Assembly: GCF_030384885.1 (NCBI RefSeq)
Contig: NZ_CP128613.1
DNA length: 64,000 bases
From: Escherichia coli
Lineage (GTDB): Bacteria > Pseudomonadota > Gammaproteobacteria > Enterobacterales > Enterobacteriaceae
Direction: 5' to 3' (one strand)
Of the stretch, positions 211 to 303 are shown in pieces. The position numbers and the translations under genes were made by a program. The number at the start of each line of letters is the position of its first letter. Position 1 is the first letter of the stretch. The notes beneath the pieces are model-generated. The model did no database searches, was not told the DNA's origin, and saw nothing but the letters and a program-made list of their open reading frames with translations.

Positions 211-226
211 TGTGCTGTTAATCACA
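211..226. promoter_or_regulatory. Candidate CRP site in mlc promoter (TGTGC-TGTTAA-TCACA)
   Basis: Near-consensus TGTGA-N6-TCACA palindrome about 90 bp upstream of the mlc start; mlc is known to be CRP-controlled. Confidence 0.45.
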
Positions 227-282
227 TGCCTAAGTAAAAATTTGACGACACGTATTGAAGTGCTTCACCATAGCCTACAGAT

Positions 283-303
283 TATTTCGGAGCGCGAAAA
301 TAT
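283..303. promoter_or_regulatory. Candidate Mlc/NagC-type autoregulatory operator (TTATTTCG-N5-CGAAAATA)
   Basis: 21-bp AT-rich palindrome with CG-flanked centre directly upstream of the mlc RBS (AGGGAG at 305-310). Confidence 0.4.

Follow-up and report, generated by a model that had tools for sequence, protein, structure and literature searches.

The mlc locus

The 64-kb stretch of Escherichia coli DNA analysed here (the window) opens with the 3' end of ynfL, which encodes a LysR-family regulator (plus strand, 1–181; the ORF spans 20–181 and ends in the stop codon TGA at 179–181). It is followed on the same strand by mlc (dgsA) at 316–1536, a coding sequence of 406 codons with a GTG start. 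The gene at 316–1536 is Mlc, as an earlier note on this DNA had named it: with the NCBIfam equivalog model for Mlc the ORF reaches 741 bits (cutoff 530), in agreement with the RefSeq annotation, and its translation carries the linker motif R71-G-R-P74. Of 5,426 complete E. coli genomes, 5,421 contain a match to positions 1–400 of the window, and strain 2013C-4282 (NZ_CP027579.1) agrees with this stretch at 100% identity. The ynfL assignment is taken from the annotation of this strain, in which the end of ynfL is followed by mlc, bioD (ynfK) and clcB.

The 134-bp spacer between ynfL and mlc (182–315) is base-for-base identical (100%) to that of E. coli K-12 MG1655, and the results of K-12 experiments are therefore directly applicable to it. 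The K-12 locus has the same gene with the same neighbours, ynfL and bioD/ynfK, and its P1/P2 control region, as listed in the RegulonDB entries reproduced by Shimada et al. (2011; PMC3105977), has the same spacer with the same CRP sequence and positions. The control region shows no difference from K-12; the window, which comes from another strain, carries a frameshift in clcB and appears to lack a segment of approximately 62 kb further downstream. The spacer is richer in A+T than its surroundings, with a G+C content of 41% compared with 48% for the window. It ends with the Shine–Dalgarno sequence GGGAG (plus strand, 305–309), six bases before the GTG start at 316. A search for intrinsic terminators gave a single prediction, inside mlc at 578–604, and none in 182–315, from the end of ynfL to the mlc promoters, so that transcripts of ynfL could continue into mlc.

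The CRP site

The sequence TGTGCTGTTAATCACA (TGTGC-TGTTAA-TCACA) is present at exactly 211–226, where the earlier note had placed a CRP-type palindrome. It forms the core of a cAMP-CRP site, AAATGTGCTGTTAATCACATGC, at 208–229, centred on 218.5, which is assigned by its match to the consensus, its identity to the RegulonDB and SELEX sequences and its conservation. The core agrees with TGTGA-N6-TCACA at nine of ten positions and the 22-mer agrees with the consensus at 13 of the 16 specified positions; the palindrome is imperfect, with a half-site of TGTGC as opposed to TGTGA. Six cores with at most one mismatch are found in the window against 2.0 expected by chance, and the 22-mer consensus with at most three mismatches occurs three times (0.44 expected). 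When the 134-bp spacer was shuffled, 80 of 20,000 shuffles contained a CRP core.

The catabolite control that had been proposed for mlc on the basis of this palindrome is borne out by published data. The RegulonDB entries reproduced in the supplement of Shimada et al. (2011; PMC3105977) list the same sequence for dgsA twice, as 'dgsA repressor -58.5' and as 'dgsA-ynfK activator -70.5', both with aaagcccgaaAAATGTGCTGTTAATCACATGCctaagtaaaa. The same supplement reports a genomic SELEX-chip peak for CRP between dgsA and ynfL with TGTGCTGTTAATCACA, and the main text counts dgsA among the known CRP targets recovered by SELEX. In addition, a dgsA promoter–lacZ fusion is less active when crp is mutated (Shimada et al., 2011; PMC3105977). 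The centre at 218.5, which is at the listed -70.5 with respect to P2 (activator) and at the listed -58.5 with respect to P1 (repressor), is in a position that is compatible with promoter control.

The arrangement resembles that of class I CRP promoters such as lac P1, in which CRP binds near -61.5 or -71.5: at mlc, too, one CRP site precedes the -35 region, at -70.5 of P2 and thus one base off the canonical -71.5. It differs from these promoters in that the same bound CRP is also listed as a repressor of the overlapping P1, at -58.5, and in that the left half-site reads TGTGC, not TGTGA, in all 81 of the upstream sequences that are compared below.

Promoters P1 and P2

The transcription starts were derived from the RegulonDB positions of the CRP centre. 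A centre at -58.5 places the P1 start (+1) at 277, and a centre at -70.5, listed for the dgsA-ynfK unit, places the P2 start at 289, both on the plus strand. We had deduced the same two starts beforehand from the sequence alone. For P1, the start at 277 points to TTGACG at 242–247 as the putative -35 hexamer (five of six positions of TTGACA; 99.6% conserved) and to CACCAT at 266–271 as a weak candidate for the -10 hexamer, separated from TTGACG by an 18-bp spacer in 76 of the 81 sequences. The corresponding candidates for P2, also on the plus strand, are the -35-like TTGAAG at 255–260, which forms part of a conserved block at 255–275, and, 17 bp downstream, the -10-like CAGATT at 278–283, which was chosen by its position relative to the start at 289 and into which the left arm of the Mlc operator extends. 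Within CAGATT, T283 is conserved in at least 97% and A279 in at least 75% of the sequences.

These hexamer assignments are weak, because a σ70 consensus scan of 1–700 returned no promoter and the hexamers of both P1 and P2 fell below its threshold. This outcome agrees with reviews that describe the mlc promoter as very weak owing to a -10 region that departs from the consensus. According to the literature, Mlc and CRP-cAMP exert both positive and negative control on the two promoters of mlc, and P2 is used by σ32 as well. TTGAAG (255–260) also resembles the σ32 -35 element TTGAA; a fit of P2 to the σ32 consensus by eye, ATTGAAG-N14-CTACAGAT, gave a partial match only, from which we draw no claim. 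The genome-wide start-site tables of Kim 2012 hold no entry for mlc/b1594.

The Mlc operator

The second palindrome, TTATTTCG-GAGCG-CGAAAATA, occupies 282–302. It had been noticed previously with coordinates (283–303) that are one base off, and the earlier description of both palindromes as lying immediately upstream of the ribosome-binding site is apt for this one, which as a full operator ends one base before GGGAG, but not for the CRP site, which lies at least 79 bp upstream. The full candidate operator, ATTATTTCGGAGCGCGAAAATAT, is a 23-bp quasi-palindrome at 281–303 (the predicted footprint) with its centre at 292; it is an imperfect palindrome, with 14 of 23 positions symmetric. An inverted-repeat finder with a 6-nt seed reported neither this element nor the CRP palindrome, since neither has exact arms longer than 4–5 nt, and a literal search of full-text papers for the two site sequences gave no match.

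Published criteria describe the Mlc site as a 23-bp quasi-palindrome with an invariant TT/AA at ±5 and ±6 (TT-N9-AA) and A/T-rich positions from ±7 to ±11. Around the centre at 292, TT is found at 286–287 and AA at 297–298, and the arms ATTAT and AATAT are A/T at all ten positions from ±7 to ±11. No other sequence in the spacer has this combination, whereas the Mlc-type pattern is found five times in the 64-kb window as a whole against 1.4 expected by chance. For scoring, a symmetrized matrix was built from five K-12 sites (two from ptsG and one each from manX, ptsH and malT), with mlc excluded; these sites were picked by pattern and not from footprints, and a scan of the K-12 upstream regions of ptsG, manX, ptsH and malT with the same criteria gave one or two sites each. 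With this matrix 281–303 scores 17.0 bits and ranks second of 63,978 positions in the window, and one of 20,000 shuffled spacers contained an equally high score.

Counted from the P1 and P2 starts, the operator is centred on +16 and +4, respectively, and the 23-mer covers the putative -10 element (278–283) and the start (289) of P2 together with the initial transcribed region of P1. The abstract of Shin 2001 reportedly gives P1 at +1, P2 at +13 and the Mlc site at +16; these positions fit 277, 289 and 292 in the window exactly. The literature describes Mlc as autoregulated and places a site for the Mlc protein at its own gene, as the earlier note had suggested when it described autorepression. 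Together, these secondary statements, the position attributed to Shin 2001 and the match to the published criteria support the identification of 281–303 as the predicted Mlc operator.

The closest parallel is the Mlc operator of ptsHI P0 (ATTATTTTGATGCGCGAAATTAA), which is identical to the mlc operator at 18 of 23 positions and shares the TT-N9-AA core, the A/T arms and a central GCGCG. The P0 promoter is likewise controlled by both CRP and Mlc, with ptsH listed as a CRP target (Shimada et al., 2011; PMC3105977). The two operators differ in what they control, a PTS operon in the case of ptsHI and the gene of the repressor itself in the case of mlc, and the ptsH site used in this comparison was located by pattern scan.

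Conservation of the control region

To the window we added 80 loci from a scan of representative genomes in which Mlc is 85–99% identical. The resulting 81 upstream regions are all distinct and all come from Enterobacteriaceae, including Escherichia, Klebsiella, Enterobacter, Citrobacter, Salmonella, Kosakonia, Raoultella and others. Conservation is given as the mean column conservation over the 81 sequences. The two CRP half-sites reach 0.98 and 1.00, with 0.85 for the bases between them; the stretch at 230–241 reaches 0.91, TTGACG (242–247) 0.996, the block at 255–275 0.94, the Mlc 23-mer (281–303) 0.93 and the Shine–Dalgarno region (304–310) 0.98. The corresponding values for the flanks are 0.53 (182–205), 0.52 (248–254), 0.73 (276–280) and 0.69 (311–315).

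All the published features of an Mlc site recur in each of the 81 regions. The CRP core has one mismatch in 72 sequences and two in the other nine, and GTGC...CACA is present in all 81. The distances are also preserved: between the CRP centre and TTGAC there are 23.5 bp in 80 of 81 sequences, and the centres of the CRP site and the operator are 73.5 bp apart in 71 of 81. Within E. coli, 275–310 is identical in 5,416 and 201–236 in 5,404 of the 5,426 genomes; the surrounding 400 bp are less than 99% identical in 1,144 genomes. The sequence comparison thus shows strong constraint on both sites and on the spacing between them.

Two further blocks, CTAAGTAAAAATTTGACG at 230–247 and TTGAAGTGCTTCACCATAGCC at 255–275, lie between the CRP and Mlc sites and are 91–99% conserved in the 81 sequences. 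The first includes an A-tract adjoining the -35 hexamer (GTAAAAATTTGACG). In the region of the second there is a small palindrome, TGAAG-TG-CTTCA, at 256–267, of which the right arm together with CACCATAG is nearly invariant and the left arm is variable. In the left CRP half-site, TGTGC, the C that departs from the consensus does not vary either (81/81). Because 230–247 and 255–275 are conserved beyond what two weak promoters would appear to need, we note the possibility, which we regard as unlikely, that these blocks and the invariant C mark an undescribed additional regulator or a dedicated σ32/UP-element architecture throughout the Enterobacteriaceae.

Other readings of the two palindromes

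The element at 282–302 could act mainly as an RNA hairpin in the 5' untranslated region of mlc that controls translation or mRNA stability, and not as a DNA operator. The element is indeed transcribed from P1, and the minimum-energy fold of 277–345 has, at 285–299, a stem of 5 bp that closes a 5-nt loop. This fold is, however, no more stable than those of shuffled sequences (z = +0.82; 155 of 200 shuffles gave folds of equal or greater stability), the P2 transcripts start at 289, within the stem of the hairpin, and no match to an Rfam family was found. The alignment also speaks against a hairpin: there are no compensatory pairs among the 81 sequences, whereas the TT/AA and A/T-arm rules for Mlc hold in every one of them. 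On the basis of the z score and the lack of an Rfam family we rejected the RNA hairpin, which we consider very unlikely.

If the element is a DNA operator, its main user could be a ROK repressor other than Mlc, such as the paralogue NagC. The logos of the NagC and Mlc sites are almost indistinguishable, and cross-repression has been described in the literature for the overproduced proteins. The sites are told apart at ±11, which is A/T in Mlc sites and C/G in high-affinity NagC sites and is read by the RGRP linker of Mlc. At mlc these positions are A281 and T303, the Mlc signature. Moreover, no cross-regulation between NagC and Mlc has been seen at physiological protein levels, and the autorepression reported in the literature is by Mlc. 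Main use of the site by NagC or another member of the family is accordingly even less probable than an RNA hairpin.

Least credible of all is that one or both motifs are chance matches without a regulatory role in an A+T-rich spacer (41% G+C compared with 48%): although approximately two CRP-like cores and 1.4 Mlc-type patterns are expected per 64 kb, chance is excluded by the conservation of sequence and spacing across genera in the 81 Enterobacteriaceae sequences, whose flanks vary, and by the SELEX binding and crp dependence (PMC3105977), and it is also opposed by the rarity of the motifs in the shuffled spacers (80 and one of 20,000 for CRP and Mlc, respectively).

Proposed control of mlc transcription

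The region, with P1 at 277, P2 at 289, CRP control from 208–229 and Mlc autorepression at 281–303, is almost certainly the characterized control region of E. coli mlc (dgsA).

In the mechanism that we propose, transcription would start at 277 and 289 from two weak, overlapping promoters. A single cAMP-CRP dimer on 208–229 would activate P2 in the manner of a class I promoter (from -70.5) and, as listed, inhibit P1 (from -58.5), so that low glucose and high cAMP would shift transcription towards P2 with a net activation. Mlc, the product of the downstream gene, would bind 281–303 as a dimer or tetramer. Since the operator covers the -10 element and start of P2 and the early transcribed region of P1, RNA polymerase would be blocked at both promoters, resulting in negative autoregulation; steric occlusion is the mode of repression that we infer from this overlap. 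Of this scheme, the two sites with their positions relative to the listed promoters, the binding of CRP (SELEX), the dependence on crp and the autorepression are documented.

During glucose transport, dephosphorylated EIICB-Glc, which according to the literature sequesters Mlc, would hold the repressor at the membrane and free the operator. Glucose would also lower cAMP and with it the activation by CRP. The two controls would then oppose each other in the response to glucose, and the level of Mlc may thus stay nearly constant.

The control of mlc by CRP and Mlc has been known from publications and RegulonDB for more than two decades, and nothing here is biologically new: the control region in the window has the sequence of the strain in which this control was worked out. 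The regulatory region had been correctly recognized without recourse to databases, from its letters, and this recognition is now confirmed. What is added here is the phylogenetic footprint, drawn from 81 Enterobacteriaceae sequences and 5,426 E. coli genomes.

Other observations in the window

Sampled segments of the window from position 1 to approximately 25300 are 100% identical to 2013C-4282. The distance from the mlc promoter to the dgcZ region is 25.3 kb in the window, whereas in NZ_CP027579.1 the two lie at 887,607 and 974,809, approximately 62 kb further apart. The window therefore appears to be without an insertion that is present in NZ_CP027579.1 and that is probably a prophage.

Downstream of mlc, clcB (minus strand) is split into two overlapping ORFs at 2309–2866 and 2698–3624. 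At 2755–2770 the window reads GCATACCACG, compared with GCAGACCCACG in K-12 and 2013C-4282, a G>T change with a 1-nt deletion. The best match to a 301-bp stretch of clcB among 5,420 complete E. coli genomes is no higher than 99.3%. Either this strain carries clcB as a pseudogene of its own, or the split reflects a sequencing error.

The highest score of the Mlc matrix in the window, 17.04, is at 25588–25610 (TTTTTTTTCGCCGTCATAAAAAT) in the dgcZ / ydeE / mgtS-mgtT region, flanked by a plus-strand ORF, which ends at 25452, and by a minus-strand ORF whose 3' end is at 25893. As this sequence is rich in T-runs and lies between the ends of ORFs, it is probably a chance match. Weaker Mlc-type patterns are found in the 3' part of mlc at 1307–1329 (ATTTATTTAACCCACAAAAAATA) and directly after the mlc stop codon at 1538–1560.

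Further matches to the CRP core are found at 28270–28285 and 47575–47590. Three others, at 19283–19298, 31459–31474 and 39825–39840, have reverse complements that are listed as SELEX-chip CRP sites by Shimada et al. (2011; PMC3105977), where they are assigned to ydfH/ydfZ, yneK/ydeA and uxaB. The annotation around two of these three cores reads ydeA/yneK and yneE/uxaB.
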